Positions 4,496 to 33,822 of a stretch of DNA of 64,000 nucleotides are shown here, piece after piece. The stretch is from Bacteroidia bacterium (lineage in GTDB: Bacteria; Bacteroidota; Bacteroidia; 2-12-FULL-35-15), in NCBI GenBank assembly GCA_030654175.1, contig JAURXZ010000049.1, positions 92,334 to 156,333 of the forward strand, given 5' to 3'. The translations under genes were made by a program, and so were the position numbers. Every line of letters begins with the position of its first letter. Position 1 is the stretch's first letter. Under the pieces are notes generated by a model, which saw only the letters and a program-made list of their open reading frames with translations, made no database searches and was not told the origin of the DNA.

Positions 4496-4603
4496 GGGCG
4501 TTCCACTTTCTTAAACAAGAAAGTGTCGGGCTTTTCACTTCAATCTTTCCTTTCGCCAGCTGGCGACAGGAAAGGATTTTCGTTTCAATCCCTAACGCAG
4601 CAT
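4496..4603 (-). repeat. Copy A of the dispersed structured intergenic element (about 100 nt), minus orientation
   Basis: Shares GCGTTAGGGATTG..AAATCC..ATTGAAG..AAAGCCCG..hairpin..AACGCCC blocks with copies at 8483, 25198, 33823 and 37758. Confidence 0.8.
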
Positions 4604-4799
4604 ATCCCTGAAAGAACCAACATTTAATATATTTTACTTTTGGGACCAAAAGCTTGCTTTTTTTTATCTTTTTTTGGCTAAAAAATCTACCCCTGACCTG
4701 GATTAAAGTATAAATAAATCCTAATTTTTTTGTACTTTTGTATTCCTAAAAATCAAAATCCCGATAGTTATCAGGATACTAAATTAAAAATTTCACAAA

Positions 4800-7036: not shown

Positions 7037-8287
7037 ATGGCAAAAGAAGAAAAAGAAATAAAATGTTCATTCTGTGGACGCAAGAAACAAGAAACGGAAG
7101 TACTCATTGCGGGTATCACCGGGCATATTTGTAATCACTGCGTTACTCAGGCTCAAACCATAGTGCGTGATGAAGCAAGCCAGAATTCAGGTGCTTCCAT
7201 CTTTAATGCATTGCATCTCCTGAAGCCAATGGAGATTAAAAAACATTTGGATGAGTATGTGATCGGCCAGGATGAGGCAAAAAAAGTTCTGTCAGTAGCT
7301 GTTTATAACCATTACAAACGTTTGATTAAAAGTCAGTCGAAAACAGCTCAGAAAGATGAAGTGGAGATCGATAAATCAAATGTGATAATGGTAGGTGAAA
7401 CAGGAACAGGTAAAACATTGTTGGCGCGAACCATTGCAAAAGTACTTAATGTACCTTTTTGCATTGCAGATGCAACAGTGCTTACCGAAGCTGGTTATGT
7501 TGGTGAAGATGTGGAAAGTATTTTATCACGTCTTTTGCAAGCTGCCGATTTTGATGTTACTGCTGCCGAAAGAGGAATTGTATTTATTGATGAGATCGAT
7601 AAGATAGCGCGTAAAAGCGATAATCCTTCTATCACCCGTGATGTTTCAGGTGAAGGTGTTCAGCAAGGTTTATTGAAATTACTGGAAGGTTCAGTTGTAG
7701 GTGTTCCACCACAAGGCGGACGTAAACATCCTGAACAAAAAATGATACAGGTAAATACGAAGAACATATTATTTATTTGTGGCGGAGCTTTTGACGGGAT
7801 CACCAGGAATATCGGAAAACGCTTGCAAACACAAGCTATCGGTTATAATGTAAACAAAGAAAAAGTTAGCATTGATACTGATAATTTATTGCAATATGTT
7901 TCGCCTCAGGATCTAAAAAGTTTTGGTTTAATACCTGAATTAATAGGTCGTTTGCCGGTATTAACTTATTTGAATCCTTTGGATGCGGATACGTTACGCA
8001 GGATTTTGAGCGAGCCCAAAAATGCATTAATAAAACAATATTTGCATTTGTTTGAAATGGATGGTGTAAAAATCACATTTGAAAAAGGTGTGTTGGATTT
8101 TATTGTAGAGAAAGCAATGGAATTTAAGTTAGGTGCACGTGGTTTACGTTCGATTTGCGAGGCTATCATGATGGATCTGATGTTTGATACCCCTTCTGAT
8201 GCAACTGTGAAGGAGGTTAACCTGACACTGCGTTACGCTAAAGATAAACTCAAAAAATCAACTTTGACGAAATTGAAAGTTGCGTAA
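7037..8287 (+). CDS. clpX: ATP-dependent Clp protease ATP-binding subunit ClpX
   Basis: N-terminal C4 zinc finger (CSFCGR...CNHC). Walker [12 protein letters not shown]+ sensor motifs. 416 aa. Confidence 0.95.
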
Positions 8288-8330
8288 AGGAAATTAATAG
8301 TTACTATTCCTGTTTATAATTATTTTATAA

Positions 8331-8358
8331 TGCCCCCTCTTTCAAGGGGGCATTTTTA
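8331..8358 (+). terminator. Rho-independent terminator after clpX (tgccccct-cuuuca-agggggca + T-run)
   Basis: 8-bp GC-rich stem followed by tttttatt. Confidence 0.75.
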
Positions 8359-8482
8359 TTGATATAAATTCGTTAAATTCGTATCAAGAAATTGCGCTAA
8401 CAATTGAAACTTAAAAATCGGAGTCCGATTGTTAAGTTAGGCTAAAGCCCAATAAAAGCTGACAAATTCTCTTTCACTGAAA

Positions 8483-8580
8483 ATGCTGCGTTAGGGATTG
8501 CAGCGTAAATCCTTTTCTGTTTAGAAAAGATTGAAGCGGAAAGCCCGCCCCTTTCTTTTTTCAAAGAAAGGGGAACGCCC
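8483..8580 (+). repeat. Copy B of the dispersed structured intergenic element, plus orientation
   Basis: Same conserved blocks as the other four copies. Confidence 0.8.
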
Positions 8581-8686
8581 TAATGAAAAAGGTTTTAAAC
8601 AAATTATTTTTATTTTATTAATCGAACTCAGCTTAAAAATTAATATCCTATTGGGGAAATTTAATTTGTGATAACAAAAACAAAAA

Positions 8687-11600
8687 ATGAGTGAAAAGAT
8701 TCTGAAAGCATTGATGCGACTGTTCGCTATCATTGCTAAATCTGACGAAAATACTGTTGATGCTAAAAGTGTAGTTGAATCTTATTTGAAACAACAACTT
8801 AATAAAGAGCAGGTGCAAGAGTACCTTGCTATTTATGAAGGTTTTTTAAAATTGCAGGATGAGGGAGCACAGGGGGAGAAGAAAAAAAGACGTTTGGCGG
8901 TTAGTTCTGTTAAAGTAATTGTTATTTGTGATCAGATAAATGAGGAACTGACTCAAAAGCAGAAATTTATTGTTTTGTTGAATCTTATTGAATTTGTAAG
9001 TTCAAATGGTTCCATTTCTGAGCAGGAAATGGAGTTCATATATACTGTTTCTTCCTCATTTAAAATTCCTGATGAAGAATTTAACCAGTGTTTGTCTTTA
9101 GCATCAAAAAATACTATTTCAGAGATTGAAGATTCTCAAAATTTTCTTGTTATCAGTAATCAGAAAAACAGATCGATTGCGCCTTCTCAAATTTCTTTGG
9201 AGGCTAACACGCAAAAGTTATATTCTGAATCCATAATAGGCGATCTGGCTGTTTTACATATTAAAAGTATAGGAATATATCTTATTCGCTATTATGGCGA
9301 TGCAGAACTGTTTTTAAACGGACAAATTATCACTCCTCATAAAATTTATGTTTTATCACAAGGCTCTTCCATTCGAAGTTCAAAAGTTCAGCCAATTTAT
9401 TACAGCGATATTGTATTTGCTTTCTCCAATGATCTTTCGGAAAGTAAAATTGTGTTCGCTGTAAATGATATTGATTTTAAATTTAAAAGTGGACACATAG
9501 GATTGCATAAGCTAAACTTTACTGAAAATTCAGGAAAGCTGATCGGTATTATGGGTGGGAGCGGGGCTGGGAAATCCACGCTGCTTAATATTTTAAATGG
9601 TAACAATACCCCTTCATCAGGAGAGGTCCTGGTAAATGGACATGATCTTCACCAGGATAAAAAAGAGCTGGAAGGTGTAATTGGATATATTCCTCAGGAT
9701 GATCTATTGATTGAAGAACTTACCGTTTATCAAAATTTATTTTATAATTCTAAATTATGTTTTGACGACTATTCGGATGAAAAAATTGATCGGATGGTTA
9801 TTGAAATGCTCAATGATTTGGGCCTCTATGAAACGAAGGACCTAAAAGTTGGTAATTCACTTGATAAAACTATAAGTGGGGGACAACGAAAAAGATTAAA
9901 CATTGCTTTGGAGCTAATTCGGGAGCCTTCAGTATTGTTTGTTGATGAGCCCACCTCGGGGCTGTCTTCAAGGGATTCGGAAAATATAATGGATCTGCTC
10001 AAGGAGCTTTCGCTGAAAGGAAAACTTATTTTCGTTGTGATCCATCAGCCTTCTTCTGAAATTTTTAAAATGTTTGATAAGCTTCTTATCCTTGATGTTG
10101 GTGGTTATCCTATTTACAATGGTAACCCTGTGGAATCGGTGATCTATTTTAAAACCCTTATCAACCAGGTGAATGCGAATGAAAGTGAATGTAATACTTG
10201 CGGTAATGTAAATCCTGAACAGATATTTAATATTATTGAATCAAAAGTATTGGATGAAAATGGCAATCAAACAAGATTAAGAAGAATATCTCCAAAAGAG
10301 TGGAATGAATTTTATATTTCTAAAAACACTGTTAATCCGTCTATTTCAAAGGACACTGCCAAACAACCAATAAAAAACACGTTTAAAAAACCGAATTTTT
10401 TAAACCAATTCAAAGTATTCACTACCCGTGATGTATTATCGAAATTGTCGAATACACAATATCTTTTTATAAATCTTTTAGAGGCGCCTCTGCTTGCCTT
10501 AATTTTAGCCACGCTTATCAAATATTATAAAAACGATCAGAATTATTTATTTTCTGATAATAAAAATATGCCGGCATATATTTTTATGTGTGTGATCGTT
10601 TCTTTATTCATAGGCCTTACCGTTAGTGCGGAGGAAATTATCAGGGACAGGAAAATTTTAAAACGGGAATCGTTTTTGAATTTGAGTAAAGGAAGTTATT
10701 TAACTTCTAAAATACTTATCCTGTTTTTTATTTCCGCCATTCAAACGATAACTTTTGTTTTAATAGGGAATTATATTTTAGAGATCAAAGGAATGTATTT
10801 GGATTATTGGATGGTTTTATTCACTGCTTCTTGTTTTGCAAATATGTTGGGGTTGAATATTTCATCAGCATTTAATTCAGCCGTAACCATTTATATTTTG
10901 ATTCCCTTTTTGTTGATCCCGCAAATATTATTAAGTGGAGTAATTGTGAAGTTCGAAGAATTAAATCCTAAAATCTCCAGCCAGTCGTTGGTGCCATTTT
11001 CAGGAGAGATAATGACCTCACGATGGGCATTTGAGGCTTTGGCTGTTAACCAGTTTGTAGATAATAAGTATGAGAAACAAATTTATAATTATGAAAAAGA
11101 AATAAGCAATGCCAGTTTTAAAAAAGTGTATTGGTTTTCGAAAATGAATGAACTGGTAGATGCTCTTGAAAATAAAAAGGCCGTTTCTTTAAATTTGGAA
11201 ATTTTAAAACACGAAGTAGATCAGGAAATGAAAGCTATTCCGGAAATAATATTTGCTTCTTTGAATAATATGGATGCTGGAAATATTGATGAAAACTTAA
11301 TTAATGAGTTAAAAGAATACCTGGTAAAAGTGAAGGACCACTATTCTCAAAAATATGAAAAGGCCGTTAAGAGCAAGGATGAATGGATGAGTGGATTTCA
11401 AGGAAATGATTTACATAAGGCAGAATATCAGCAGTTGCTGAGCAATTACCAAAATTCAAAAATTGAAGATCTTTTAAAAAATGCAGGTTCTGATCTGGAT
11501 GAGGTCGTTGAAAGTGATGGAAAACTGATCGCTACCGGAGATCCTATTTATAGAGATGGACCCAAGGATCATTTTATACGCTCGCATTTTTTTTCGCCAA

Positions 11601-11755
11601 CTAAAAATGTGTTTGGAAACTTATACAGCACTTATTGGGTTAATATTGGTGTTATTTGGGCCATGTCATTCTTATTATGGTTTACATTGTATTTTGATGT
11701 TTTGAGAAGAATTTTGAATTTGTTTGCTGTGATCCCATGGAAAACAAAAAAATAA
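8687..11755 (+). CDS. Multidomain ABC half-transporter (ABCG/White-like): N-terminal TerB-like domain and possible FHA-like region, ABC ATPase, ABC-2 permease, C-terminal coiled-coil tail with a terminal TM segment
   Basis: Walker A GGSGAGKST. ABC signature LSGGQRKRLNIALEL. Walker B LFVDEPTSGL. H-loop VIHQPS. Six predicted TM helices after residue 590. The first ~270 aa has no ABC motifs. Confidence 0.8.
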   Translation: MSEKILKALMRLFAIIAKSDENTVDAKSVVESYLKQQLNKEQVQEYLAIYEGFLKLQDEGAQGEKKKRRLAVSSVKVIVICDQINEELTQKQKFIVLLNLIEFVSSNGSISEQEMEFIYTVSSSFKIPDEEFNQCLSLASKNTISEIEDSQNFLVISNQKNRSIAPSQISLEANTQKLYSESIIGDLAVLHIKSIGIYLIRYYGDAELFLNGQIITPHKIYVLSQGSSIRSSKVQPIYYSDIVFAFSNDLSESKIVFAVNDIDFKFKSGHIGLHKLNFTENSGKLIGIMGGSGAGKSTLLNILNGNNTPSSGEVLVNGHDLHQDKKELEGVIGYIPQDDLLIEELTVYQNLFYNSKLCFDDYSDEKIDRMVIEMLNDLGLYETKDLKVGNSLDKTISGGQRKRLNIALELIREPSVLFVDEPTSGLSSRDSENIMDLLKELSLKGKLIFVVIHQPSSEIFKMFDKLLILDVGGYPIYNGNPVESVIYFKTLINQVNANESECNTCGNVNPEQIFNIIESKVLDENGNQTRLRRISPKEWNEFYISKNTVNPSISKDTAKQPIKNTFKKPNFLNQFKVFTTRDVLSKLSNTQYLFINLLEAPLLALILATLIKYYKNDQNYLFSDNKNMPAYIFMCVIVSLFIGLTVSAEEIIRDRKILKRESFLNLSKGSYLTSKILILFFISAIQTITFVLIGNYILEIKGMYLDYWMVLFTASCFANMLGLNISSAFNSAVTIYILIPFLLIPQILLSGVIVKFEELNPKISSQSLVPFSGEIMTSRWAFEALAVNQFVDNKYEKQIYNYEKEISNASFKKVYWFSKMNELVDALENKKAVSLNLEILKHEVDQEMKAIPEIIFASLNNMDAGNIDENLINELKEYLVKVKDHYSQKYEKAVKSKDEWMSGFQGNDLHKAEYQQLLSNYQNSKIEDLLKNAGSDLDEVVESDGKLIATGDPIYRDGPKDHFIRSHFFSPTKNVFGNLYSTYWVNIGVIWAMSFLLWFTLYFDVLRRILNLFAVIPWKTKK

Positions 11756-11819: not shown

Positions 11820-13277
11820 TTAGAAATTGAAATTAACTCCTGCTGTAAATGGATATACTTGTGGCCCTTTATCTTTTTTAAATAACCTGTTCAAGCCATA
11901 ATTTGCAAATAGTGTAACATTATTATAACCAATGCGAGCAGTAGCTGTATAAAGAAAAGGCTCCAGGTTAAAATCATCACGTTGTTTTATTTTGTTATGC
12001 TTATCATTCAGATCATATTTTTGTTTTAATACAGAATGTATACGGTATTCAAATTGTGCACCAACAGCTACATGGAAATTATGATTGGATTTTTTTCCGG
12101 TGTTAAACTCGATCATTAATGGTGCTTTGATATAACTTACATTCAATGTGTTTTTCTTGTACTTTACCGCGTCATTTGAAGCATCCAGATAGGTGGCATC
12201 AGAATTTAATGTTACATTGTTTTTTAATGCATAGTGCTTAAAATCGAAACCAAATCCGGTTACCAGGTTTACATAATTTTTATAGATATGGAAATTTTTT
12301 TCCAGTAGGTTTAGTCCGAAATGAATTGACCTTGCATAGTTCAATTCTAAGAATGTTGCGCCTTCCGGAGCATCTAACTTATTATTGTAATCTAATAAAC
12401 CATTAACTCCTATTTCAAAACCAGTCCAGTGTTTGAACTCTTCGTTATAATTCCTTAAAGAATCTTTTTTACTTATAACTTCTTCATCCTCGTCATCATC
12501 ATCGCCATCACCTATAATTACGTATTTCTTTTTTCCAAGTTTAAGTTTTGTTGTATCAGTGGCAGTTTCTTCACCATTACCACTTCTGCTTTCACGAACC
12601 GATCCAAAACCGGTAATGCTTATATTTCTATCGGTCGGATTCCCTTTGTAAATTACAGAACCAACGCCCGAAACATCTGCATCTAAATTTTGTTTAACAT
12701 TTATCTTTGCATCACCTGCACCGGATACTTTAACTTTTGCTTTATCAACTTCCAGGTTCGATGCACGTAAATTACCTACTCCTGATAAGGTTGCTTCTAA
12801 TATTTGCGCAGCTCCGATCAATACAACATTACCAACCCCGCTAATGTTAGTTTTAACATCACTTGCTTTAATATCCAAATGGATTTTTCCGGCACCATTT
12901 GACGAAATTGTTAATTTGTCACATATTAACTGATTGCCGGACTTTACGTCTGCAGCACCAGTTATATCCAAATTGCTAAGTGATTTAATTCCAATATTTA
13001 TCACTAAAGGTTTATCACTTTTAATATTGTCTACCGCAATAATGGATAATATACCATCTTTTACTTCGGTTTTAATTTGCAGTTGGGATTTTTCATCTGC
13101 ATCAACTTTAACAGTATTTGAGTCGCTTTGCGAAAGAATAATATTAAAATTATCGCCAGCTTTTACTCCGTTGAAATCACCAACGGTTCTTTTTTCTTGA
13201 GCTGTGGAACTAAATATTGAGAAGCCTGTTAATAAAACAAGTCCAACTAATTTTATTTTTATGTTTCCAGTTTTCAT
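11820..13277 (-). CDS. Secreted/outer-membrane protein: N-terminal DUF2807/GIN 'adhesin head' beta-helix repeats, acidic linker, C-terminal putative beta-barrel
   Basis: Signal peptide. Repeated SGVGNV/SGAGD beta-helix motifs. DDDDEDEE linker. C-terminal alternating-hydrophobic region ending in Phe, typical of an outer-membrane beta-barrel. Confidence 0.6.
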   Translation of the reverse strand: MKTGNIKIKLVGLVLLTGFSIFSSTAQEKRTVGDFNGVKAGDNFNIILSQSDSNTVKVDADEKSQLQIKTEVKDGILSIIAVDNIKSDKPLVINIGIKSLSNLDITGAADVKSGNQLICDKLTISSNGAGKIHLDIKASDVKTNISGVGNVVLIGAAQILEATLSGVGNLRASNLEVDKAKVKVSGAGDAKINVKQNLDADVSGVGSVIYKGNPTDRNISITGFGSVRESRSGNGEETATDTTKLKLGKKKYVIIGDGDDDDEDEEVISKKDSLRNYNEEFKHWTGFEIGVNGLLDYNNKLDAPEGATFLELNYARSIHFGLNLLEKNFHIYKNYVNLVTGFGFDFKHYALKNNVTLNSDATYLDASNDAVKYKKNTLNVSYIKAPLMIEFNTGKKSNHNFHVAVGAQFEYRIHSVLKQKYDLNDKHNKIKQRDDFNLEPFLYTATARIGYNNVTLFANYGLNRLFKKDKGPQVYPFTAGVNFNF

Positions 13278-13706: not shown

Positions 13707-14192
13707 ATGACAGTACAAGAATTTAATAAGACTGTTGATTTATATGCAGATAATCTGTATCGGTTTATCCTTAAAAATATTAAGGATTCTGAAAAAGCGC
13801 GTGATATTGTGCAGGATACTTACGAAAAAATGTGGTTAAAGGTATCTGAGGTGGAATCTACAAATGCCAAATCCTATATGTTCACTGCGGCATACCGCAC
13901 AATGATAGATCGTATCAGACGTGATAAGAAACAAGGTGACCTGTCCGAATCAAATATGCATAGTTTAAGCCATAACAATCATTACAGTGATTTGAAAGAG
14001 ATATTGAATGAAGCTTTAACAAAACTACCCGAAATACAACGTTCTGTTATTTTATTACGCGATTATGAGGGGTACAATTATTCTGAAATAGGTGAAATTA
14101 CCGGATTAAATGAATCTCAGGTTAAGGTGTATATTTTTAGGGCTAGAGGTTTTTTGAAAAATTATATTGGAGCGATGGAGAATGTGATGTAA
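13707..14192 (+). CDS. ECF (group IV, sigma-24 type) RNA polymerase sigma factor
   Basis: Region 2 (DIVQDTYEKMW) and region 4 HTH (VILLRDYEGYNYSEIGEITGLNESQVKV); 161 aa. Confidence 0.85.
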   Translation: MTVQEFNKTVDLYADNLYRFILKNIKDSEKARDIVQDTYEKMWLKVSEVESTNAKSYMFTAAYRTMIDRIRRDKKQGDLSESNMHSLSHNNHYSDLKEILNEALTKLPEIQRSVILLRDYEGYNYSEIGEITGLNESQVKVYIFRARGFLKNYIGAMENVM

Positions 14193-14315
14193 AAAGGGGG
14201 CTCGCTAAATTCCTTTTTTTTAAGAATGAGGTAAATTGAGAGCATGTTAAAATTGAAATCAATAATTAAACGGTTTAAAATTCCTTTTTCCTTTGGAATT
14301 GGATAAATAGATTAA

Positions 14316-15629
14316 ATGAATATCAACAAAAATAACTACGAAGCATATTTCCTTGATTATCACGAGGGAAATCTGACACCTGTTCAGGTGGCGGACTTGC
14401 TGTTTTTTGTTGAACAGCATCCTGAATTAAAAGAGGAATTTGAAAATTTTGAAAATTTTTCACTTGAAGATTTTTCTTCTATTGAATTTGCAAACAAATC
14501 AAGTTTGAAGAAAGAAATCACACTTGATAATAAAGAAGAATATTTTATAAGAGCAGTAGAAAATGAGTTGAATCCTACTGAAATTACCTTATTGAAGAAT
14601 TTCTTAAAACAATATCCTCAATTTTTGGTTGATCTTGAATTGTTTCAAAAAACAAAAATTTCTCTTGATACTTCTATCCTTTTTGAACATAAAAACGGAT
14701 TAAAAAGAGCTGTTTTTACTAAATCCGGGTCCGATTTGTCCGAGGCCGATGAGTTATTGATTAGCTCAATTGAAGGGCTATTAAGTCCAATGGAGATCAA
14801 TTTATTGAATGAACGTTTAGTTGAAGATAAAGAAATAGCGGAAAAATTTGTTTTATTTAATCAAACAAAACTCATTGCTGATAGATCTATCGTTTTTGAA
14901 GGTAAAGAAAGCTTAAAACATAAATCTAATAAACTCATTCCGTTTTACTATTATATTTCAGCAGCGGCAGCTATAATACTATTGTTTGGCTTGTTCTTTT
15001 TATTTAATAATGATACTATCCAACCTGAATTGGCTATTAAACTGCCAGTTATAAACAATAAAAAAACAGAATTAATTGAAAGCCCGGCTTTAGTGGAAAA
15101 TAAAGTTGTAAAAATAAAAACGCAACCAATTAACACCATTGCGTTGGTAGCGAAAAAAGAAAAATCAAAAACAATAAATTTGAATCTTAAGGATTCTCTT
15201 TTGACTTCTCCTGTGGTGGTTCCCGATTTATTAATAGCATCAAATAAAGGGATCGTAGAATCATTTATGGGTACGGATACTTTACTGGTTAAACCTAGCA
15301 AGATTGAGCAATTAGCCGATAATCGAATTGAAGTTGCAAAAGCGGATAAAAAAAGCGAAACGGAGAAACCAACCGAATTCCTTTCTATTCCTGAATTAGC
15401 AGTTGAAAAAATCAAAGAAAAATTATTAGATAAAAATGCAATTGCTGCACAAAAGAAAAGCGGTAATTTAAAAAAAGTTACTGGTTGGGATATCGCACAA
15501 GTGCTTACAACCGGTATAAGTAAACTTACAGGTCGCGAAGTTGAATTAAAACCTTACTATAATGATGAAGGTGCCGTAACCGCTTATGCGCTTAATGCAG
15601 GTGCATTTCAGATTTCAAGAGGGAGATAA
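14316..15629 (+). CDS. Putative anti-sigma factor / single-pass membrane protein cognate to the ECF sigma
   Basis: Immediately downstream of the ECF sigma. One TM helix (LIPFYYYISAAAAIILLFGLFFLF). No recognisable FecR domain. Confidence 0.45.
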   Translation: MNINKNNYEAYFLDYHEGNLTPVQVADLLFFVEQHPELKEEFENFENFSLEDFSSIEFANKSSLKKEITLDNKEEYFIRAVENELNPTEITLLKNFLKQYPQFLVDLELFQKTKISLDTSILFEHKNGLKRAVFTKSGSDLSEADELLISSIEGLLSPMEINLLNERLVEDKEIAEKFVLFNQTKLIADRSIVFEGKESLKHKSNKLIPFYYYISAAAAIILLFGLFFLFNNDTIQPELAIKLPVINNKKTELIESPALVENKVVKIKTQPINTIALVAKKEKSKTINLNLKDSLLTSPVVVPDLLIASNKGIVESFMGTDTLLVKPSKIEQLADNRIEVAKADKKSETEKPTEFLSIPELAVEKIKEKLLDKNAIAAQKKSGNLKKVTGWDIAQVLTTGISKLTGREVELKPYYNDEGAVTAYALNAGAFQISRGR

Positions 15630-16039: not shown

Positions 16040-18247
16040 TTAAATTCTTATTCCAATCACAAGTATATCATCAATTTGTTCATTTGTATCTTTCCATTTT
16101 TCAATGAAATCCTCAAGGAAAATTCTCTGCTCATCCATTTGTTTTTGTTGAATGCTTAAAAAAATTTCTTTGAATCTTTTTGTCATTAGTTTTTCATCTG
16201 AACTACTAAACTGGTCAGCATATCCATCCGAAAAAATGTAAATGCAATCACCTTTCATTAGTGATACCTTAGTTCTGGTAAATTTCCGTTCTGTTTCCGA
16301 CTGAGCTCCACCAATGGCAAATTTATTTCCTTTTATTTCTGTTAGTTGGTAGTTGTTCTGGAATGAGCCCGTATTGAGTGAAATCGAAGTGCTGGTGGAA
16401 GTCCCATTATCAATTGTTAATTCTCCTTTATCAATTTTTTTAATGATCCACAACGGTCTTTGCGCACCTGCAAATTCAATTTCGGTATTGGTGATAAAAG
16501 TGATCAAAGAAATATCCATTCCATCTTTCGATTCACTTTGCTCTTCCTGCTTTAATGTTTTGCGTATTTCTTTGTGAAGATGATTTAGAATTTCATCGGG
16601 AGAAGTAATTCCTTTTTCATTCACGATCTGATTTAGAATATTGTTGCCGATCATACTCATTAATGCGCCAGGTACTCCATGTCCAGTACAATCGCAGGCT
16701 GCAATTAATTTTCTTCCGTCCTTTTCTGCAAACCAATAAAAATCACCACTTACAGTATCTTTCGGTTTAAATAAAATAAAAGAATCGGGAAACAGGACGT
16801 GTTTGAATTCTTTGGTCGGAAGAATCGCATCCTGAATAGTTTTTGCATAATCTATGCTGTCGGTGATGTCTTTATTTTTTTCTTCAATTATTTTTTTTTG
16901 CTCCACAATTTCCGAGGTTCTTTCTTTAACCTGTATTTCAAGTGTTTCCTTTTGAGTTTCAAGGATTTTTTGTTTTTCTTTCTCCTGTTCAAGGTTCTTT
17001 TTCGAAAGCGATTCTACTTCTGTTAACTTCTTTTTAAGGATCTTATTCGTTGTTGAAAATTGTTTAGCTAAGTATAACGACATCGAAACAGGGATACTCA
17101 TGGTGGCGAAGGTGAATAATATCTGAGGCAGATAGCCGGAAAAATTTCCATCATTAGGTATCAGTGTTATGGCTGCAACAAATAATATGAAAATAGCTAC
17201 GCCAATACCAATGATCGTTGAGCCTTGTTTTTTATTTATAAGAGCAATTATTACCACTCGTATAACTTCTATAATTGTCAGGCCAATAAAAAAATAAGAA
17301 ATTTTGTCAGTGTATTCCCATTGAAATAAAATAAAGAAAAAATTAAGGGCACCAATAACCAGTGGAAACCAAAATGCTTTTGGGATTCGTTCGTAAAAAA
17401 TAGAATAAACAAGCATGATCAGGGATATTAATAAAACCGGAATCAGTTCGCTTGAGAGATTATCAAACCAGTCAAACAACGCTGCATCTTTTACACTTGT
17501 CTGAAAAAAAGGAGCTAGTGCGTAAAAGGAGAGGAGAGACGCAAATAAAAAATAAAAGAAATTACTTTTATTTGCTCTGTAAAATAGAAAGATGAACAGG
17601 TGTGCAATACCAAGTGCAATAATAAAACCAAAAGGGAAGATACTTTTTACATCTGTGTTCACACTTTCATTGAAAGTATTCACAATTTGTTCATTAGCAG
17701 GAAACAGAAAAACCCGAAATCCTTTGCCGTAATTTATATTCCTGTTATAGCCCGATTTGTGGTTGGAATAACGGATCGCTAACACATATTCATTTCCCGG
17801 GATAATATTTAACGCTACAGGAATAAGATTGGGATAATACCTTTCTTCTTCTTCAGGATCTGAACTTACTGTACCAAAGTTTATAAGTTTTTGTCCATTA
17901 AAATAGATCTCTGAAGCACTTGCCTGCAATATACCAATCGCTAAAGGGAAGGATGCCAGTGAGCTGTCAAAATTCAAATGTAAACGAAACCAGCCTATGC
18001 CTTTAAAATTTGTGTCATCAAGGCTGCCAATGTTAATTGTATCCCAGGCTGTGTCGTCAAAATCTTCATTAGCCCATAAAGTGTCATCGCCCTCATGAAA
18101 TTTCCAGTAGGTATCTAATTCAACTCCTGAAGCGTTTTCGCTATCGATTGTAAAAACATTGGTTTCCTGAGCTCCTGATAAATAGAAAGAAGCCAATAGA
18201 ATAAATAAAATGATTTTTTTTATCATTGAGTTTAAAAATAGTTGCAC
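16040..18247 (-). CDS. 7TM receptor with extracellular 7TMR-DISMED2 domain and cytoplasmic PP2C/SpoIIE-type Ser/Thr phosphatase (paralog 1)
   Basis: Signal peptide. N-terminal carbohydrate-binding-like domain. Seven TM helices. Coiled coil. PPM motifs (GDFYWF, ACDCTGHGVPGALMS, SDGYADQF). Confidence 0.8.
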   Translation of the reverse strand: MQLFLNSMIKKIILFILLASFYLSGAQETNVFTIDSENASGVELDTYWKFHEGDDTLWANEDFDDTAWDTINIGSLDDTNFKGIGWFRLHLNFDSSLASFPLAIGILQASASEIYFNGQKLINFGTVSSDPEEEERYYPNLIPVALNIIPGNEYVLAIRYSNHKSGYNRNINYGKGFRVFLFPANEQIVNTFNESVNTDVKSIFPFGFIIALGIAHLFIFLFYRANKSNFFYFLFASLLSFYALAPFFQTSVKDAALFDWFDNLSSELIPVLLISLIMLVYSIFYERIPKAFWFPLVIGALNFFFILFQWEYTDKISYFFIGLTIIEVIRVVIIALINKKQGSTIIGIGVAIFILFVAAITLIPNDGNFSGYLPQILFTFATMSIPVSMSLYLAKQFSTTNKILKKKLTEVESLSKKNLEQEKEKQKILETQKETLEIQVKERTSEIVEQKKIIEEKNKDITDSIDYAKTIQDAILPTKEFKHVLFPDSFILFKPKDTVSGDFYWFAEKDGRKLIAACDCTGHGVPGALMSMIGNNILNQIVNEKGITSPDEILNHLHKEIRKTLKQEEQSESKDGMDISLITFITNTEIEFAGAQRPLWIIKKIDKGELTIDNGTSTSTSISLNTGSFQNNYQLTEIKGNKFAIGGAQSETERKFTRTKVSLMKGDCIYIFSDGYADQFSSSDEKLMTKRFKEIFLSIQQKQMDEQRIFLEDFIEKWKDTNEQIDDILVIGIRI

Positions 18248-18252
18248 CGATT

Positions 18253-20427
18253 TTAAATTCGTATACCGATCACTAATATATCATCGATCTGTTCACGAGC
18301 CCCTCTCCATTTTTCTATAAAATCAGAAAGAAAAATTTCCTGTTCGGTCATTGATTTTCGCTGTACGCCTATAAGAAGCTCTTTGAATCGGGACGTCATT
18401 AATTTATTGTCTATATCGCTGAATTGGTCAGCATATCCATCAGAGGAAATATAAATACATTCTCCTTTCGATAATGAAATTTTATGATTTGTAAATTTCC
18501 TTTCTGTTTCAGATTGCCAGCCACCAATAGCAAATTTGTCACCTTTTGTTTCTGTTAATTGTGGGAGCATTTCATTATCAATTAGTAATTCTCCATTATC
18601 AATTTTTCTTACGATCCACAAAGGTCTTTGTGCACCTGCAAATTCAATTTCTGTTTGGCTATTAAAAGTAATAATGGCAATATCCATTCCGTCCTTCGTT
18701 TCATTTTGTTCTTCCTGATTTAATGTTTTTCGGATTTCTTTGTGCAGGTGATTCAGTATTTCGTCAGGAGAAGTAATTCCTTTTTCATTCACGATCTGAT
18801 TCAGTATATTGTTACCGATCATACTCATCAAAGCTCCAGGTACCCCGTGTCCGGTGCAATCGCAAGCTGCAATTATTTTTTTATTGTTCTTTTCAGCAAA
18901 CCAAAAAAAATCTCCGCTTACAATGTCTTTTGGTTTAAATAATATAAATGAATCCGGAAAAAGTTTGTTTTTCAGTTCATTTGAAGGAAGGATGGCTTCC
19001 TGTATCGTTTTAGCATAGTTGATACTATCAGTAATGTCTTTATTCTTTTCTTCAATAACCTTTTTTTGTTCAACAATTTCCGAAGTACGTTCTTTAACCT
19101 GAATTTCAAGTGTTTCCTTTTGTGTTTCTAATATTTTCTGCTTTTCTTTTTCCTGTTCAATGCTTTTTTCTGAAAGGGTTTCAACTTCAACAAGTTTTTT
19201 CTCCAGATTGTTATTCGTCATTGCGAATTGCCTTGCAAGGTATACCGACATAGAGACAGGAATACTTATCAATGCCAGAAAAATCAAAACAATAAAAAAA
19301 ATGGAATGAATTGAAAAATTGCTATTCGCCATAATTACAATAAGAATAAACCCTAAAAAAAGCAAGAAAATAAGAGATCCTGTTCCAATGATCCATGCAC
19401 CATCTATTTTTTTTCTGATGGACTTGATGACCATAAAGAACGAAGCTACAACTGTACTTATAATGAAACTAAAAAGTAAATATTCTGTAAAATTGTTGTT
19501 ACGGAAAATCAATGCAATGAGCAATGCGATCAAAATTAGAGTCGAGAACCAAAAATATTTGGTGACTGGCCTTTTAAAGAGAGAATAATGCAGTACAAGC
19601 AGGGCATAAAAAAATGAGCTCAGAAAAAACCAAAAATAGTAATTGAGTGTTATGGTGAGCTCGGGGTTAAATGAATTGAAGCTGATTGTTGGAATAAAAA
19701 AAATGGATCCAAATAAAAAAACAAATATGCTATAGTACAGATTTGTTATATGTTTTCTATAAAAGAGAAAAAACAATAGGTGCACAAAACCCAGCGATAA
19801 AAAGAATATTCCAAGTACCACAGCAATTGAAGTAATAATAATGCGGGTAACAAATTTTTCTTTAACGGAATCGTCTTGTTTGGCAATTTTGATTGTGAAG
19901 CCCGGATTATTTGTATGGTATTTTTCAAAATAGTTTTGATAATCTAAATTAGAATACCTTATTGCCAGGATGTGCTCTCCTGCCGTAGCATTACTGAAAG
20001 TAAGAGGGATTTCGTTTGGATTGTATTTTTTTTCTGTATTTGGATTTGCAGAAACCGTTCCCAACGAATGAATAAGTTTACCATCCAGAAAAATTTGTGA
20101 TGCACCATCCTGGTTCACCAATAGGGCCAATGGTGTATCCTTTAAAGAAGAATCTATGTAAATATGAATCCTGAACCAGCCAATGCCTTTGAAATCAGTT
20201 GAATCGTTTTCATCAAATTTTAAACTCGTATTTATTGTACCCCAGGTGCTATCGTTAAAATATGAAGATGCCCAGGTAGAATCATCTCCATTGTGGAATT
20301 TCCAGAATTTATCAAGAGCAATTGTCTCGATAGAATCTATTTTGGGTATCCTTAAAACATTTTTATTTTGAGCCGGCAGTAAAGCAGCGATTGAGAAGAA
20401 ACAAAGTAAGAGAAGGATTTTTTTCAT
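18253..20427 (-). CDS. 7TM receptor with 7TMR-DISMED2 domain and PP2C/SpoIIE phosphatase (paralog 2, tandem duplicate)
   Basis: Same architecture as 16040-18247. The coiled-coil and phosphatase segments are near-identical at the protein and DNA level. Confidence 0.8.
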   Translation of the reverse strand: MKKILLLLCFFSIAALLPAQNKNVLRIPKIDSIETIALDKFWKFHNGDDSTWASSYFNDSTWGTINTSLKFDENDSTDFKGIGWFRIHIYIDSSLKDTPLALLVNQDGASQIFLDGKLIHSLGTVSANPNTEKKYNPNEIPLTFSNATAGEHILAIRYSNLDYQNYFEKYHTNNPGFTIKIAKQDDSVKEKFVTRIIITSIAVVLGIFFLSLGFVHLLFFLFYRKHITNLYYSIFVFLFGSIFFIPTISFNSFNPELTITLNYYFWFFLSSFFYALLVLHYSLFKRPVTKYFWFSTLILIALLIALIFRNNNFTEYLLFSFIISTVVASFFMVIKSIRKKIDGAWIIGTGSLIFLLFLGFILIVIMANSNFSIHSIFFIVLIFLALISIPVSMSVYLARQFAMTNNNLEKKLVEVETLSEKSIEQEKEKQKILETQKETLEIQVKERTSEIVEQKKVIEEKNKDITDSINYAKTIQEAILPSNELKNKLFPDSFILFKPKDIVSGDFFWFAEKNNKKIIAACDCTGHGVPGALMSMIGNNILNQIVNEKGITSPDEILNHLHKEIRKTLNQEEQNETKDGMDIAIITFNSQTEIEFAGAQRPLWIVRKIDNGELLIDNEMLPQLTETKGDKFAIGGWQSETERKFTNHKISLSKGECIYISSDGYADQFSDIDNKLMTSRFKELLIGVQRKSMTEQEIFLSDFIEKWRGAREQIDDILVIGIRI

Positions 20428-20789: not shown

Positions 20790-23700
20790 ATGAAAAACTC
20801 TACTATTAATTCCCGGATACTTTGTTGCAAATGGTTAATAGGATTGTTACTTGTTGTTTTCTTTTTTAGTGATTTTCAAAAGCTACAAGCGCAATGTACA
20901 GCACCTGTTGCGAACTCATCACCGTCTTCTCAAACTATTTGCTCCGGAACTTCCCCCTCAATTGTTTTGTCAAGTAATATTTCTGGAACCACTTTTTCAT
21001 GGACAGTTCTTCAAAATGGCGTTTCAGGTGGCAATAATTTTTCTTTAATAACATCACAAATTTTAACTGCAACCGGCACTAATGCCGGTACCGCTGTGTA
21101 TACAGTCACTCCCTCTGCTAATGGTTGCACAGGTTCACCCATAACAGTTACTATAACTGTTATGGGCGTAGTAAGCGGTGGTACCATTGCTGCCGCTCAA
21201 ACAATATGCAATGGAGGAGACCCCGCTGCTTTTACAGAAAGTACGCCATCTAGCGGTTCCGGTACACTTACATACGAGTGGAAATTCAGCACCGATGGGT
21301 TTGCTGCGACTTTGGCAACAACTCCAACGTATGATATTCCAGCAGGTGTGAATGCTTCTGCCTATTACAGGCGAATAACTACAAATACATTAAACGGCTT
21401 AAGTTGTACTGTTAACAGTAACGATATAATAGTTACAGTAATTTCAAAACCAACTGTACTTACTGTGAACCAGACTTTATGCCCTCCTGCAACTGCGGAT
21501 ATTACCTCACCATCAGTTACCTTAGGTTCCACTGGTGGCTTAACCTATTCTTACTATACAGATGCCTTGGCAACAATTTCTTATGCCACTCCTTCAGCCG
21601 CAACAGCTGCAACATATTATATTGTTGGCATAGCTGGAGGAGGTTGCTCTGATACAACAGCAGTAAGTGTAACTGCAAGCCAATTTCCTGTTGCTATCGC
21701 TAGCCCTTCTTCTCAAACTATTTGCGATTGCGGTGTAGCTGCGATAGCATTGTCAAGTAATATTTCTGGAACCACTTTTTCCTGGACTGTAATGCAATCA
21801 GGAGTTTCCGGAGCTTCGGCTGGATCTGGGAGTACAATAGCACAAATGTTATGTACAACTGGTCCTTTTGTAAGTAATGCAATTTATACAATTACCCCTA
21901 CTGCTAATGGTTGTGTAGGAAATTCAATAAATGATACGATAACAATTACCCCATCCCTTAATGTTATTGCTACACCTCAGGCACAAACTGTATGCTCTGG
22001 AAATAGCACATTAATTGCTTTAAGCAGTAATGTCTCGGGTACTGTCTTTTCATGGACCGTGGCTCAAACAGGCGTTACAGGTGGTGCTACAGGAACAGGT
22101 AATACAATTTCACAATCATTATCAACCACCGGGACTATTGCAGGAACTGCTGTTTATACTATTACTCCTTCGTTAAACGGATGTGCCGGAACTGCTATTA
22201 ATGTTTCAATTACCATTAATATTAATGATGATGCATCTTTTTCTTACCCATCAGCAACCCATTGCCAAACAGGCACTAACCCAACACCATCTATTACTGG
22301 TTTGGCAGGAGGTGCATTTTCATCAAGCCCAGCTGGTTTACAAATTAATTCATCAACAGGTATAATTGATTTAGCAACAAGTTCACTGGGTACATATTCT
22401 GTTACCTATACAACAAATGGTATTTGCCCGAATACAAATTCAATAACAATGACGATTACGGTCGCACCTTCTGCGAGTTTCAGTTATACAGGTTCTCCGT
22501 TTTGTAAAAATGTAAATAATCCTTTTCCAACATTTGCTTCAGGCGCAAGCGCGGGTGCATTTTCTGCTATTCCTACAGGCTTGGTTTTTGTAAATGTGAA
22601 TACAGGTGAGATTGATTTAGCGGCAAGTATGTCAGGAACCTATACCATTACTAATACCATTCCTGCAAATGGGGGATGTGCCGCTGCAATCGCAACAACT
22701 ACGGTTATAATAAACGCTATGGATGATGCAGCTTTTGCTTATTCATCAGGAACCTATTGTACATCCGGTACTAATCCAAGTCCCACAATAACGGGCTTAG
22801 CCGGAGGAACGTTTTCATCTGTTCCGGCAGGTTTATCAATTAATCCATCAACAGGTACAATCAGTTTATCTACAAGTTCATTGGGTGCATATACCCTTAC
22901 CTATACAACAAATGGTAATTGCCCAAATACTAATTCATCAACTAATACTGTTATAGCCACACCATCCGCTAATTTTAGTTATTCGGGTTCTCCATTTTGT
23001 CAAAATGCAAATAATTCATTTCCAACATTCGGTTCAGGTGCAAGCGCTGGTACATTTTCATCTACTCCTTCAGGCTTGGCTTTTGTAAATGTGAATACTG
23101 GCGAGATTGATTTATTTGTAAGCCTACCGGGAACCTATACAATTACAAATACAATACCTGCAAATGGTGGATGTGCCGGTGTAATCGCGACAACTACAAC
23201 TACTATAATTCCTATGGATGATGCTTCTTTTACATATTCTTCAGGAACCCATTGCACATCAGGCAATAACCCAAGTGCAACAATAACTGGATTACCCGGA
23301 GGCTCGTTTTCATCTGTTCCGGCAGGTTTAACAATTAATCCATCAACGGGCATGATTGATTTAGCACTAAGTGCAGCAGGCACATATTCTGTTACCTATA
23401 CAACAAATGGTAATTGCCCCAATACAAATTCTATAACTATTACTATTACAGTTGCTCCTTCTACAAATTTCAGTTATTTCGGTTCTCCGTACTGCCAATA
23501 TTCAAATAATCCATTGCCAGGATTCGGCTTTGGTGCAAGCGCAGGTATATTTTCAGCCACTCCTTCAGGTTTAGTATTTGTAAACGTGAATACCGGCCTG
23601 ATTGATATAGTTTTAAGCGCCCCCGGCATTTATACTATTACAAATAACATTCCTGCAAATGGAGGATGTGCCTCTGCAAGTTCAACGGCTATGATTCAAA

Positions 23701-25109
23701 TTAACAGTTGCGGTATAATAACCGGTTCTGTGTATAAAGACAATAATGCCAATTGTATAATGGATTCAGGCGATCTAGGCATGTATCATATTCCTGTAAA
23801 GCTATATGACAATAATAATAATTTCTTAAGCATAAGATACCCTTGGAATGGTAGTTATCAATTTTTAGCACCTTTAGGAACTTACTCAGTTAAAATTGAT
23901 ACTGCAAACCTTCCATTTACGGTTCAATGTCTTTATCCGGGAATTGATACTATCCTTAACTTAACCGGTGGAAATCCAGCAGCTACCAATGTTAATTTTG
24001 GAATTGTTTGTAAATCAGGGTTTGATGTGGGGGTTGGTGGGGTGTTTCCATCTGGAACTGTTTTTCCTGGAGTACAGCATAAATTGCAGATTGGCGCAGG
24101 TGATATGGTCCAAATGAATTGGTATTGGTATAATTTTAGTTGTGCAGCAGCAATTAGTGGCCAGGTGCAGGTTACAGTGACTGGTCCTGTCACATATAAT
24201 GGCATTGTTCCAGGGGCACTTACGCCATCTGTATCTGCTAATGTCTTTACTTACTCCATAGCAGACTTTGACCAAATAAATAATTGGCAAGATTTCAGAT
24301 TAAAGTTTACCACAAATACTTCTGCACAAGCAGGAGACCAAATATGTGTGAATGTTGTCGTTACGCCAACCATTGGAGATAATAATGTAAGTAACAATAC
24401 CTTTTACTTTTGCTACCTCGTTGGGAACTCCTACGATCCCAATATGAAAGAAGTATATCCTGTAAATGTAGCACCAGCTTACCAGGATTGGTTTACCTAT
24501 ACTATTCACTTTCAAAACACAGGCAATGCTCCTGCTATGAATATTCGTTTAGCAGATACACTGGATGCTAATTTAGATTTTGAAACATTCGAGGTAATTA
24601 ATTACAGTGATTCAATAGACGTTTCATTGGATAATAATTTGCTGAATTTCCATTTTCCAAATATTATGTTACCTGATAGTACCAGTGATCCTGAAGGTTC
24701 TAAAGGCTATGTACAATATCGTGTAAAGCCGAAAGCAAATTTACCGGCCGGTACACAAATAAAAAATACAGCCTATATTTATTTTGATTACAATGCCCCT
24801 ATTGTGACCAACACTACAATAAATGAATTTGTAGAGCCTGCTTCAATAAGTGAAAATAAATCATCAGGTACTTTAAGTGTATATCCAAATCCCGGTAATG
24901 GTAAGTTTAAAATACAAATGGACAATGGACAATTATCAATGGACAATTATCAATTATCAATTTATAGTGTTCTCGGAGAGAAAATTTTTCAATCTGAGAT
25001 CAAAAATCTGAAATCCGAAATTGATATAAGCCATCAGCCGAATGGCATTTATATCATAAGAGTAAATGATGGTATTCAATCGCTAAATCATCGTTTAATA
25101 AAGCAGTAG
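20790..25109 (+). CDS. Large repeat-rich secreted protein with C-terminal T9SS type-A sorting domain
   Basis: Signal peptide. At least eight Cys-containing Ig/PKD-like repeats. DUF11-like 'conserved repeat' region (YDPNMKEVYP...HFQNTGNAPA). C-terminal T9SS sorting domain (SVYPNPGNG...GIYIIRV). Confidence 0.8.
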   Translation: MKNSTINSRILCCKWLIGLLLVVFFFSDFQKLQAQCTAPVANSSPSSQTICSGTSPSIVLSSNISGTTFSWTVLQNGVSGGNNFSLITSQILTATGTNAGTAVYTVTPSANGCTGSPITVTITVMGVVSGGTIAAAQTICNGGDPAAFTESTPSSGSGTLTYEWKFSTDGFAATLATTPTYDIPAGVNASAYYRRITTNTLNGLSCTVNSNDIIVTVISKPTVLTVNQTLCPPATADITSPSVTLGSTGGLTYSYYTDALATISYATPSAATAATYYIVGIAGGGCSDTTAVSVTASQFPVAIASPSSQTICDCGVAAIALSSNISGTTFSWTVMQSGVSGASAGSGSTIAQMLCTTGPFVSNAIYTITPTANGCVGNSINDTITITPSLNVIATPQAQTVCSGNSTLIALSSNVSGTVFSWTVAQTGVTGGATGTGNTISQSLSTTGTIAGTAVYTITPSLNGCAGTAINVSITININDDASFSYPSATHCQTGTNPTPSITGLAGGAFSSSPAGLQINSSTGIIDLATSSLGTYSVTYTTNGICPNTNSITMTITVAPSASFSYTGSPFCKNVNNPFPTFASGASAGAFSAIPTGLVFVNVNTGEIDLAASMSGTYTITNTIPANGGCAAAIATTTVIINAMDDAAFAYSSGTYCTSGTNPSPTITGLAGGTFSSVPAGLSINPSTGTISLSTSSLGAYTLTYTTNGNCPNTNSSTNTVIATPSANFSYSGSPFCQNANNSFPTFGSGASAGTFSSTPSGLAFVNVNTGEIDLFVSLPGTYTITNTIPANGGCAGVIATTTTTIIPMDDASFTYSSGTHCTSGNNPSATITGLPGGSFSSVPAGLTINPSTGMIDLALSAAGTYSVTYTTNGNCPNTNSITITITVAPSTNFSYFGSPYCQYSNNPLPGFGFGASAGIFSATPSGLVFVNVNTGLIDIVLSAPGIYTITNNIPANGGCASASSTAMIQINSCGIITGSVYKDNNANCIMDSGDLGMYHIPVKLYDNNNNFLSIRYPWNGSYQFLAPLGTYSVKIDTANLPFTVQCLYPGIDTILNLTGGNPAATNVNFGIVCKSGFDVGVGGVFPSGTVFPGVQHKLQIGAGDMVQMNWYWYNFSCAAAISGQVQVTVTGPVTYNGIVPGALTPSVSANVFTYSIADFDQINNWQDFRLKFTTNTSAQAGDQICVNVVVTPTIGDNNVSNNTFYFCYLVGNSYDPNMKEVYPVNVAPAYQDWFTYTIHFQNTGNAPAMNIRLADTLDANLDFETFEVINYSDSIDVSLDNNLLNFHFPNIMLPDSTSDPEGSKGYVQYRVKPKANLPAGTQIKNTAYIYFDYNAPIVTNTTINEFVEPASISENKSSGTLSVYPNPGNGKFKIQMDNGQLSMDNYQLSIYSVLGEKIFQSEIKNLKSEIDISHQPNGIYIIRVNDGIQSLNHRLIKQ

Positions 25110-33739: not shown

Positions 33740-33822
33740 AATACTCTACGAATTACTATTTTAACGAATTACTATTTTAACGAATTAAAAATTTGTATTA
33801 AATTGCTACTCTCCAGGCTAAT

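Follow-up and report, generated by a model that had tools for sequence, protein, structure and literature searches.

Exporters of the ABCG type within the ATP-binding cassette (ABC) superfamily are well studied in eukaryotes and barely in bacteria. Here we describe a gene for such a protein in a 64,000-nucleotide stretch of DNA from a Bacteroidia bacterium (GTDB lineage Bacteria; Bacteroidota; Bacteroidia; 2-12-FULL-35-15; assembly GCA_030654175.1, contig JAURXZ010000049.1, positions 92,334 to 156,333), which was analysed at its full length of 64 kb and is called the window below. The gene occupies positions 8687 to 11755 of the window on the forward strand and encodes 1022 amino acids. The eukaryotic ABCG proteins (ABCG1, ABCG2 and ABCG5/G8) and the fungal PDR pumps (Cdr1 and Pdr5) resemble its product in the order of the domains, with the nucleotide-binding domain (NBD) ahead of the transmembrane domain (TMD), in the re-entrant helices that follow the fifth transmembrane helix (TM5), and in the presence of a third extracellular loop (EL3) between TM5 and TM6. 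Unlike those proteins, the bacterial family has a helical EL3 of ~190 residues, a 255-residue extension composed of a TerB domain and an FHA-like domain, an invariant CxxC motif, and a conserved operon with two envelope proteins.

Control of an ABC exporter through N-terminal FHA domains has been reported for Rv1747 of Mycobacterium tuberculosis (PMC3138270), which, like the protein in the window, is an NBD–TMD half-transporter with an FHA-type module N-terminal to the NBD. Rv1747 has two canonical phosphothreonine (pThr)-binding FHA domains, phospho-acceptor threonines in the linker, and adjacently encoded Ser/Thr phospho-signalling (PknF), with a Hanks kinase in the operon, whereas the present family has one degenerate FHA-like domain, a TerB domain, and neighbouring SiaB, SiaC and PP2C genes, with no Hanks motif found in the loci searched. 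In EssC/YukA, an FHA fold without pThr-binding residues lies at the cytoplasmic N terminus of a membrane ATPase (PMC4925161). The arrangement resembles ours, but EssC/YukA is an FtsK/SpoIIIE-class ATPase with a full-length FHA domain, whereas the protein in the window is an ABC ATPase with a shorter sandwich that carries its own patch, GSSIRSSK..PIYYSD. The helical bundle of the TerB family is seen in PG1108 of Porphyromonas gingivalis; here it forms part of an ABC exporter, and is neither a free-standing protein nor a member of a ter operon.

The SiaABCD system of Pseudomonas aeruginosa offers the nearest likeness for the genes around the family, in that the loci of relatives have a single operon for SiaC, a DUF6272 protein of the SiaB-like kind and a sensor PP2C phosphatase. 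The output of SiaABCD is the diguanylate cyclase SiaD, whereas the recurrent neighbour here is the ABC exporter, linked to the switch by gene neighbourhood alone, and we saw no GGDEF gene when surveying the recurrent neighbours, not all of which were scanned against Pfam. In Bacteroidota, c-di-GMP outputs are uncommon. Literature searches on TerB, FHA and ABC transporters in combination, and on "TerB domain", returned no description of this architecture. In this predicted ABCG exporter, cytoplasmic and presumed periplasmic additions are combined in a way that is without precedent, and the gene has a recurrent partner-switch neighbourhood.

ABCG-type core and membrane topology

The open reading frame is 100% identical to MDO9187950.1 at NCBI, encoded on a contig of 553,868 bp, where it carries the label "MAG: ATP-binding cassette domain-containing protein". 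Its ATG at position 8687 is the correct start codon, because the N-terminal sequence MSExILKALM forms the first residues of all full-length homologues. The parts of the protein are placed as follows.

8687 to 11755, + strand: whole open reading frame, 1022 residues, with TerB domain, FHA-like domain, ABCG-type NBD, and TMD with a large EL3 insertion
8687 to 9106, + strand: seven-helix TerB domain, residues 1–140 (Pfam, AlphaFold2, Foldseek)
9107 to 9211, + strand: variable, partly disordered linker with one conserved strand at 153–157, residues 141–175
9212 to 9436, + strand: predicted degenerate FHA-like beta-sandwich, residues 176–250 (AlphaFold2, Foldseek, profile comparisons)
9458 to 10171, + strand: ABC NBD, residues 258–495 (Pfam ABC_tran and motifs read in the translation)
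10190 to 10201, + strand: CxxC motif, invariant in the family, residues 502–505
10394 to 11062, + strand: connecting helix, TM1–TM5 and re-entrant helices (771–791), residues 570–792
11063 to 11629, + strand: helical domain at the ABCG EL3 position, predicted to be extracytoplasmic, residues 793–981
11630 to 11752, + strand: TM6 (982–1004) and a short basic cytoplasmic tail, residues 982–1022

When the full-length protein was compared with Pfam, we observed matches to ABC_tran (PF00005) at residues 273–424 (E 2.5e-34), to ABC2_membrane (PF01061) at residues 574–790 (E 1.1e-20), and to ABC2_membrane_7 at residues 453–491. TIGR00955 matches residues 274–799 with an E value of 7e-78, under its subfamily cut-off. 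The ATPase motifs are complete in the translation, comprising Walker A (GGSGAGKST, G290–T298), Q337, the signature ISGGQ (396–400), Walker B (VLFVD, V416–D420) with E421, and H453. The top solved homologues, from phmmer and a family profile searched against the PDB, are ABCG1, ABCG2 and Cdr1/Pdr5 (E 1e-39 to 1e-57), and the alignment to ABCG1 and ABCG2 spans both NBD and TMD, over residues 276–792 with phmmer and profile positions 257–755. The motifs, the NBD-to-TMD order, six predicted TM helices with a re-entrant element, and ABCG proteins as the closest relatives all agree with assignment to the ABCG/ABC-2 (type V) class. Judged by its sequence, the protein is an ABCG-type half-transporter with an intact core. 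A preliminary description of the locus, made from the DNA letters and translated reading frames, had proposed just such a core with all ATPase motifs, and Pfam, PDB homology and the motif reading bear it out; the ~270 residues that it had placed ahead of the NBD are present as well.

The topology given in that description requires correction. Six TM helices had been placed ahead of a charged, coiled-coil C-terminal tail of about 250 residues that ended in a hydrophobic helix. Hydropathy gives five TM helices ahead of the helical segment (592–613, 628–648, 670–697, 705–727 and 730–755) and a sixth at 983–1004, beyond it. The charged helices and the terminal hydrophobic helix are there, but because five TM helices precede the charged segment and the sixth follows, the segment is an insertion between TM5 and TM6 and not a C-terminal tail. 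The alignment to ABCG2, which covers ABCG2 residues 75–588 (phmmer) or 76–566 (family profile), stops at TM5 and its re-entrant helices, ahead of EL3 and TM6. The final 18 residues of the protein contain five Lys or Arg residues and no Asp or Glu. The simplest reading of hydropathy, homology and model is that the ~190-residue helical segment is an expanded, extracytoplasmic EL3 and that the last hydrophobic helix is TM6.

Residues 795–980 are helical and ~30% charged. The AlphaFold2 (AF2) model of residues 756–1022, computed from 82 sequences, has a predicted local distance difference test score (pLDDT) of 91 and a predicted template modelling score (pTM) of 0.84. From its N to its C terminus it contains the re-entrant helices, four long helices (796–828, 833–850, 869–902 and 908–931), two beta-hairpins, and a TM helix at 982–1002. 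In a Foldseek search of the PDB, the helical domain matched generic coiled coils alone (best E 0.5, probability <0.3) and had no similarity to the periplasmic domains of MacB, FtsX or LolC, and a phmmer search of the PDB with the TMD and the segment after it alone gave no match. Both the length of the EL3 domain and a membrane-proximal motif, DPIYRDG...HFFxPxK, are kept family-wide. Another conserved feature lies after the NBD and before a conserved NPEQ(I/V)FN segment, where C502, C505 and G506 of a CxxC-G motif are 100% conserved among 194 family members. As each protomer would contribute two cysteines, a homodimer might build a four-cysteine metal site or a redox switch, a suggestion that we regard as speculative.

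A scan of one genome per species yielded at least 595 confirmed family matches, from which 80 loci were kept for neighbourhood work. All 80 come from Bacteroidota, in the Flavobacteriales (including Vicingaceae, Crocinitomicaceae and Parvicellaceae) and the Bacteroidales, and full-length homologues of 1000–1040 residues are abundant. Among homologues that are ~56% identical overall, column identity reaches 85–99% over the NBD and TM2–TM5, and over the NBD alone it is 90–99% across the family. This strong conservation of NBD and TMD argues for a specific, conserved function or a fixed substrate and against multidrug promiscuity. The N-terminal and EL3 additions are also conserved in length and sequence, over hundreds of species. 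Database labels for these proteins are generic, either "ABC-type multidrug transport system ATPase subunit" or "ATP-binding cassette domain-containing protein".

The N-terminal TerB and FHA-like module

The TerB family (PF05099) matches residues 8–134 with 30.8 bits when residues 1–159 are searched alone and with 25.9 bits when the whole protein is searched; the gathering cut-off is 24.4, and many homologues carry a precomputed PF05099 assignment. By Pfam's own criterion the N-terminal domain is TerB. The AF2 model of residues 1–280, computed from 49 homologues (pLDDT 84, pTM 0.76), has seven helices within residues 3–140, and Foldseek matches them to the TerB-like protein PG1108 (2h5n) with a probability of 0.95–0.99 and a TM-score of 0.52–0.58 normalised to the target. 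Conservation within the domain peaks at residues 1–17 and 74–103. The preliminary description had read residues 1–130 as a TerB-like helical bundle and had placed a possible FHA domain further on. Structure prediction returned a TerB fold, in agreement with the Pfam score over cut-off and the PG1108 match, and an FHA-like one that is short and aligned in part.

The linker that joins the two domains is poorly ordered at residues 165–171, where pLDDT falls below 50, and has 36% gaps in the family alignment. Beyond it, AF2 places seven short strands in residues 176–230, with an eighth at 153–157 and a helix at 239–248; an FHA domain is by definition an 11-strand sandwich. Of the 50 top PDB matches from Foldseek, nearly all are FHA domains, with probabilities mostly of 0.9–1.0; they include Rad53 FHA1, Mek1, CEP170, PNKP, aprataxin, KIF1A, DgcB and EssC (5fwh). 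Sequence comparisons point in the same direction. The sole PDB match of a 44-sequence profile covering residues 172–272 is the Mek1 FHA domain, at a weak E value of 0.65; Pfam FHA is touched by 3 of the 44 homologues, all sub-threshold, with a best E value of 0.0019; and hhalign aligns 44 columns with Rad53 FHA1, covering beta7–beta10 alone (P = 9.5e-4). The Rad53 FHA1 sequence used for this alignment was entered by hand, and its numbering matches the published R70, S85, H88 and N107. These tests agree in setting the family sequence (L/Y)LNGQ...YxL(S/T)QGSSI against WLNGQ...LLSQGDEI of FHA beta7–beta10. Residues 145–266 of the window protein have no match to Pfam FHA (PF00498) at E ≤ 10, and a PDB sequence search with the same residues alone gave chance antibody matches and nothing useful.

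In canonical FHA domains pThr is bound by Gly-Arg in beta3/4, Ser-x-x-His in beta4/5 and Asn in beta6/7; the Arg, His and Asn are missing among the 194 family members. In place of the arginine, the residue after G185 is Glu, Gln or Asp; S194 is 86% conserved, but the position three residues on, where the histidine would stand, is Met, Ile or Leu; and position 206, equivalent to the FHA asparagine, is Ser, Ala or Thr. The loops that bear these residues are shorter as well, with 9 residues from G185 to S194 compared with 16 in Rad53. Because the pThr-binding residues are absent and their loops are much shorter than those of Rad53, sequence and model together indicate that residues 176–250 are a shortened, degenerate FHA-like sandwich without pThr-binding residues. 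The FHA call of the preliminary description therefore stands as a resemblance of fold, seen with AF2 and Foldseek, and falls as regards the pThr-binding residues and a Pfam FHA match. The beta-rich segment with a Gly...Asn-Gly pattern on which it was based is present at residues 176–230, and the pattern (G204, N211 and G212) is conserved, but its counterpart in FHA domains is the second "NG", in strand beta8, and not the phosphate-binding asparagine for which it had been taken.

The most strongly conserved part of the domain is a patch, G226-S-S-I-R-S-S-K-V-x-P-I-Y-Y-S-D241, that is near-invariant in the 194 members and as conserved as the catalytic motifs. In the hhalign alignment it takes the place of the FHA beta10/beta11 loop, which in Rad53 FHA1 lies on the peptide-binding face. 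The patch may plausibly form a surface that binds a ligand through new chemistry. The FHA-like profile, run through HMMER in an exhaustive search, gave 400 representative clusters, with 150 matches listed. The full-length proteins among the 150 matches listed are ~1000–1160 residues long with the domain at ~150–250, the others being fragments; among these matches there is no bridge to canonical FHA proteins, and the same architecture alone recurs. One 867-residue match (P0205, 1.4e-29 against the profile) consists of 13 near-identical repeats of ~63 residues; we regard it as a probable translation of a tandem DNA repeat and discounted it as a false positive.

Gene neighbourhood in the family and in the window

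Clustering of all open reading frames of the 80 related loci identified two recurrent partners of the ABC gene. The first, c1, is a lipoprotein of ~300 residues with the motif FSIPSP.QTA, encoded on the same strand directly upstream of the ABC gene in 67 of the 80 loci. The second, c2, is a secreted protein of ~140 residues with the motif ISDGQxYR; in 66 loci its gene likewise lies upstream in the same orientation, and the median distance to the ABC gene is 84 bp. Examples are found in loci L004 (6200–7654), L011 and L013. Because the arrangement recurs though the outer flanks vary widely, c1, c2 and the ABC gene constitute a genuine operon. Neither c1 nor c2 has relatives in Pfam, NCBIfam or the PDB, and so they offer no clue to function.

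In Vicingus-type loci, all within one clade, the ABC gene is followed by another gene in the same orientation. Its product, a membrane protein of 740 residues, bears motifs like those of patatin phospholipases (GGGSR and GSSGG); the gene is found in L004 (10875–13100), L012 (13135–15360) and ~16 other loci. In a close relative of the window locus (L081), a gene combining Patatin and Omp85-like parts lies near the ABC gene, at 8224–10725. The patatin-like neighbours are a possible hint at a lipid substrate.

The next commonest neighbours after c1 and c2 are members of the SiaC family (PF09345, E 7e-35) and SiaB-like DUF6272 proteins (E 2.6e-43). A gene for a sensor PP2C phosphatase often follows them in the relatives, with all three in one operon. 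In 26 of the 80 loci a SiaB or SiaC gene is found no more than 10 kb from the ABC gene, and in 16 of these 26 the nearest lies within 750 bp of it (binomial 1e-10 against uniform placement in the flanks). When ABC lineages are separated at ≤70% identity, adjacency within 750 bp occurs in 14 of 35; at 60% identity, 7 of 8 lineages have SiaB or SiaC within 10 kb. The association extends to Bacteroidales loci that have neither c1 nor c2. DUF1987 proteins have been proposed, by the authors of the SiaC structure, as general modulators of adjacent proteins (PMC8457831). A regular-expression scan, as distinct from a hidden Markov model (HMM) search, found no Hanks kinase motif of the form HRDxKxxN...DFG...APE in the window or the 80 related loci.

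These observations alter the signalling scheme first put forward for the locus, in which phosphorylation on Ser/Thr gated the exporter through its FHA domain and two PP2C-type receptors downstream were suspected partners. The gating scheme is not supported, as the pThr residues are absent and no Hanks kinase motif appears in the window or the 80 loci. The suspicion about the receptors gains comparative support through the SiaB/SiaC partner switch, though not by the FHA/pThr route, and of the phosphatases and Hanks kinases whose co-occurrence was to be looked for, the phosphatases are seen, with PP2C genes recurring near relatives.

Around the ABC gene, the window itself is arranged as follows.

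8329 to 8354, + strand: terminator-like hairpin after clpX
8480 to 8554, + strand: Flavo-1 RNA motif in the 5' intergenic region (Rfam RF01705, 52.3 bits, gathering score 42)
4520 to 4606 (− strand), 33821 to 33892 (+ strand) and 37781 to 37852 (− strand): other Flavo-1 copies
11820 to 13277, − strand: convergent gene for a DUF2807 and outer-membrane protein (OMP) beta-barrel protein
13707 to 15629: extracytoplasmic function (ECF) sigma factor (161 residues) and a 437-residue protein with one hydrophobic segment and no Pfam match
16040 to 18247 and 18253 to 20427, − strand: two tandem 7TMR-DISM and PP2C (SpoIIE) receptors

To judge by the hairpin after clpX, the ABC gene forms its own transcription unit. 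Between this terminator and the ABC start codon lies one of four Flavo-1 copies in the 64 kb, all of them intergenic and scoring 51–56 bits against a gathering score of 42. The preliminary description had recorded copy B of a dispersed element here; the copy is present, the element is the Flavo-1 RNA motif, and the idea of a rearranging mobile element was rejected. In L081, but not in L082, a Flavo-1-related copy (332–436) likewise immediately precedes the ABC gene.

The tandem receptors, of 735 and 724 residues, have near-identical coiled-coil and phosphatase parts and different sensor parts, and are a candidate upstream signalling input to the exporter. There are two such receptor genes in the window, one each in L081 and L082, and three in L001. 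Relatives at 83–89% identity have the order recA, TPR, tig, clpP, clpX and ABC on the + strand followed by the DUF2807-OMP gene and a PP2C receptor on the − strand. Synteny between the DUF2807-OMP gene and the ABC gene is kept in the close relatives L081 and L082. In L001, which belongs to the next clade out and is 72% identical over residues 1–280, the DUF2807-OMP gene stands upstream of the ABC gene in the same orientation, and DUF2807-OMP, 7TMR-DISM-PP2C, SiaC, c1, ABC, PP2C and PP2C genes follow one another on one strand. The 7TMR-DISM-PP2C gene immediately ahead of SiaC, c1 and ABC there is the orthologue of the window receptors. To judge from this comparison, the DUF2807-OMP gene and the PP2C receptors of the window are homologues of the genes in the L001 cluster, and the window lineage appears to have been rearranged, with SiaC and c1 lost or relocated.

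The ECF sigma factor and the 437-residue protein, possibly an anti-sigma factor, lie between the OMP gene and the PP2C receptors and are missing in L081 and L082, where the receptor directly follows the OMP gene; the pair looks like a local insertion. We dropped recA, TPR, tig, clpP, clpX, the ECF sigma factor and the putative anti-sigma factor as candidate partners, their synteny being limited to the immediate clade. A gene of 193–198 codons beside the PP2C receptor in close relatives, considered as SiaB or SiaC, turned out to encode a secreted beta-rich protein. Adjoining the receptors at 20790 to 25109 on the + strand is a gene for a repetitive secreted protein of 1439 residues with Ser/Thr/Gly-rich repeats, the C-terminal segment of which resembles a type IX secretion system sorting domain.

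Proposed mechanism and alternatives

The overall picture that we favour, and hold to be slightly better than an even chance, is of a homodimeric, ATP-driven ABCG-type (type V) exporter from a Bacteroidota-specific family, with a regulatory N-terminal module and an EL3 tower. The homodimer would export a specific, conserved envelope substrate, probably lipid-like. Its EL3 helical domain would project into the periplasm over the substrate exit, in the place of the EL3 "roof" of ABCG2, and in most lineages would work with c1 and c2 to pass on the envelope substrate. The TerB/FHA-like module would serve as a regulatory handle on NBD dimerisation and would not read pThr in the canonical manner. A SiaC-type protein, in one of its phosphorylation states, would dock on this module, its phosphorylation being set by the SiaB-like kinase and the sensor PP2C phosphatases. 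That SiaC is the ligand of the module, a step for which we draw on the proposal for DUF1987 proteins and on Rv1747, we judge to be appreciably less likely than not. Slightly more doubtful is the full scheme, in which this family would supply the output that SiaB/SiaC signalling in Bacteroidota has been missing. Signals from the envelope, picked up by PP2C receptors with 7TMR-DISM, TPR or Y_Y_Y parts, would determine the phosphorylation of SiaC, SiaC would act on the TerB/pseudo-FHA module, and the module would turn the exporter on or off, while the tower, c1 and c2 would form a hitherto unrecognised trans-envelope route for a conserved lipid or lipid-linked component of the envelope.

Several points weigh against this picture. 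The exporter function is deduced from homology and gene neighbourhood, and the periplasmic side of residues 793–981 from homology and the positive-inside rule. The FHA match is partial, with Foldseek E values of 0.02–0.3 over 45–56 columns at a root-mean-square deviation of 1.7–3.3 Å, and the hhalign probability against Rad53 FHA1 is 22%. The SiaB/SiaC statistic measures positional clustering alone, and more than half of the related loci are without SiaB or SiaC within 10 kb. The 64-kb window has neither c1 nor c2, and searches of it with HMMs and tblastn found neither SiaB nor SiaC. If any of these four proteins is obligatory, it must be encoded elsewhere, or the window lineage must manage without it.

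Three other explanations were weighed against the same evidence. The least probable to us is that a genuine FHA domain reads pThr made by Hanks kinases and removed by PP2C, so that the exporter is gated as Rv1747 is. The precedent itself (PMC3138270), the FHA-like fold, the PP2C receptors 4 kb away and the recurrence of PP2C genes near relatives all suit this idea, and the conserved S227, S228, R230, K233, Y238 and Y239 on the would-be peptide face make a non-canonical phosphate site possible. Against it stand the failure to match Pfam FHA even at E ≤ 10, the family-wide absence of the canonical Arg, His and Asn in shortened loops, and the lack of a Hanks motif in the window and the 80 loci; the kinase that does co-occur is the SiaB-like protein of the GHKL type, for which SiaC is the known substrate. 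We also think it improbable, if somewhat less so, that the protein is an ordinary ABCG-type efflux pump in which the N-terminal and EL3 additions are structural only and the PP2C and SiaB/SiaC genes are neighbours by coincidence. The multidrug label in the databases would fit such a pump, as would the position of the window gene, alone behind a terminator, without a conserved partner and with unconserved clpX and ECF-sigma synteny. The additions, however, are conserved across hundreds of species, with the N terminus and G226–D241 matching the conservation of the catalytic motifs; the TMD is conserved far beyond what a promiscuous drug pump would lead one to expect; and in many independent contexts one finds the c1–c2–ABC operon and the close adjacency of SiaB/SiaC.

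An equally improbable alternative is that the protein is not strictly an exporter but a mechanotransmitter comparable to FtsEX, LolCDE or MacB, in which ATP hydrolysis in the cytoplasm would move the periplasmic tower so as to drive or regulate a process in the periplasm or outer membrane performed by c1, c2 or the DUF2807-OMP protein. In its favour are the large, rigid and confidently modelled helical domain, predicted to be periplasmic; the lipoprotein and the secreted protein encoded in the operon; and the DUF2807-OMP gene, which is syntenic in the window clade and L001. The TMD, on the other hand, is of the ABCG/ABC-2 type, whose characterised members move lipids and hydrophobic compounds, and not of the type VII found in MacB and FtsX; the EL3 domain has no Foldseek likeness to its counterparts in MacB, FtsX or LolC, and c1 and c2 are missing from the window.

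Returning to the proposed regulated exporter, its occurrence in hundreds of Bacteroidota species and its near-invariant transport core suggest an important envelope function. Three of its features would be new for an ABC exporter, namely the TerB/degenerate-FHA module, the helical EL3 domain, and the genetic link to SiaB, SiaC and PP2C. If that link is not functional, the analysis still corrects the topology and the domain calls of a widespread, generically annotated protein. If it is functional, the family would provide a concrete output for partner-switch signalling in Bacteroidota and would be the second ABC pump, after Rv1747, under Ser/Thr phospho-signalling, by a different mechanism.

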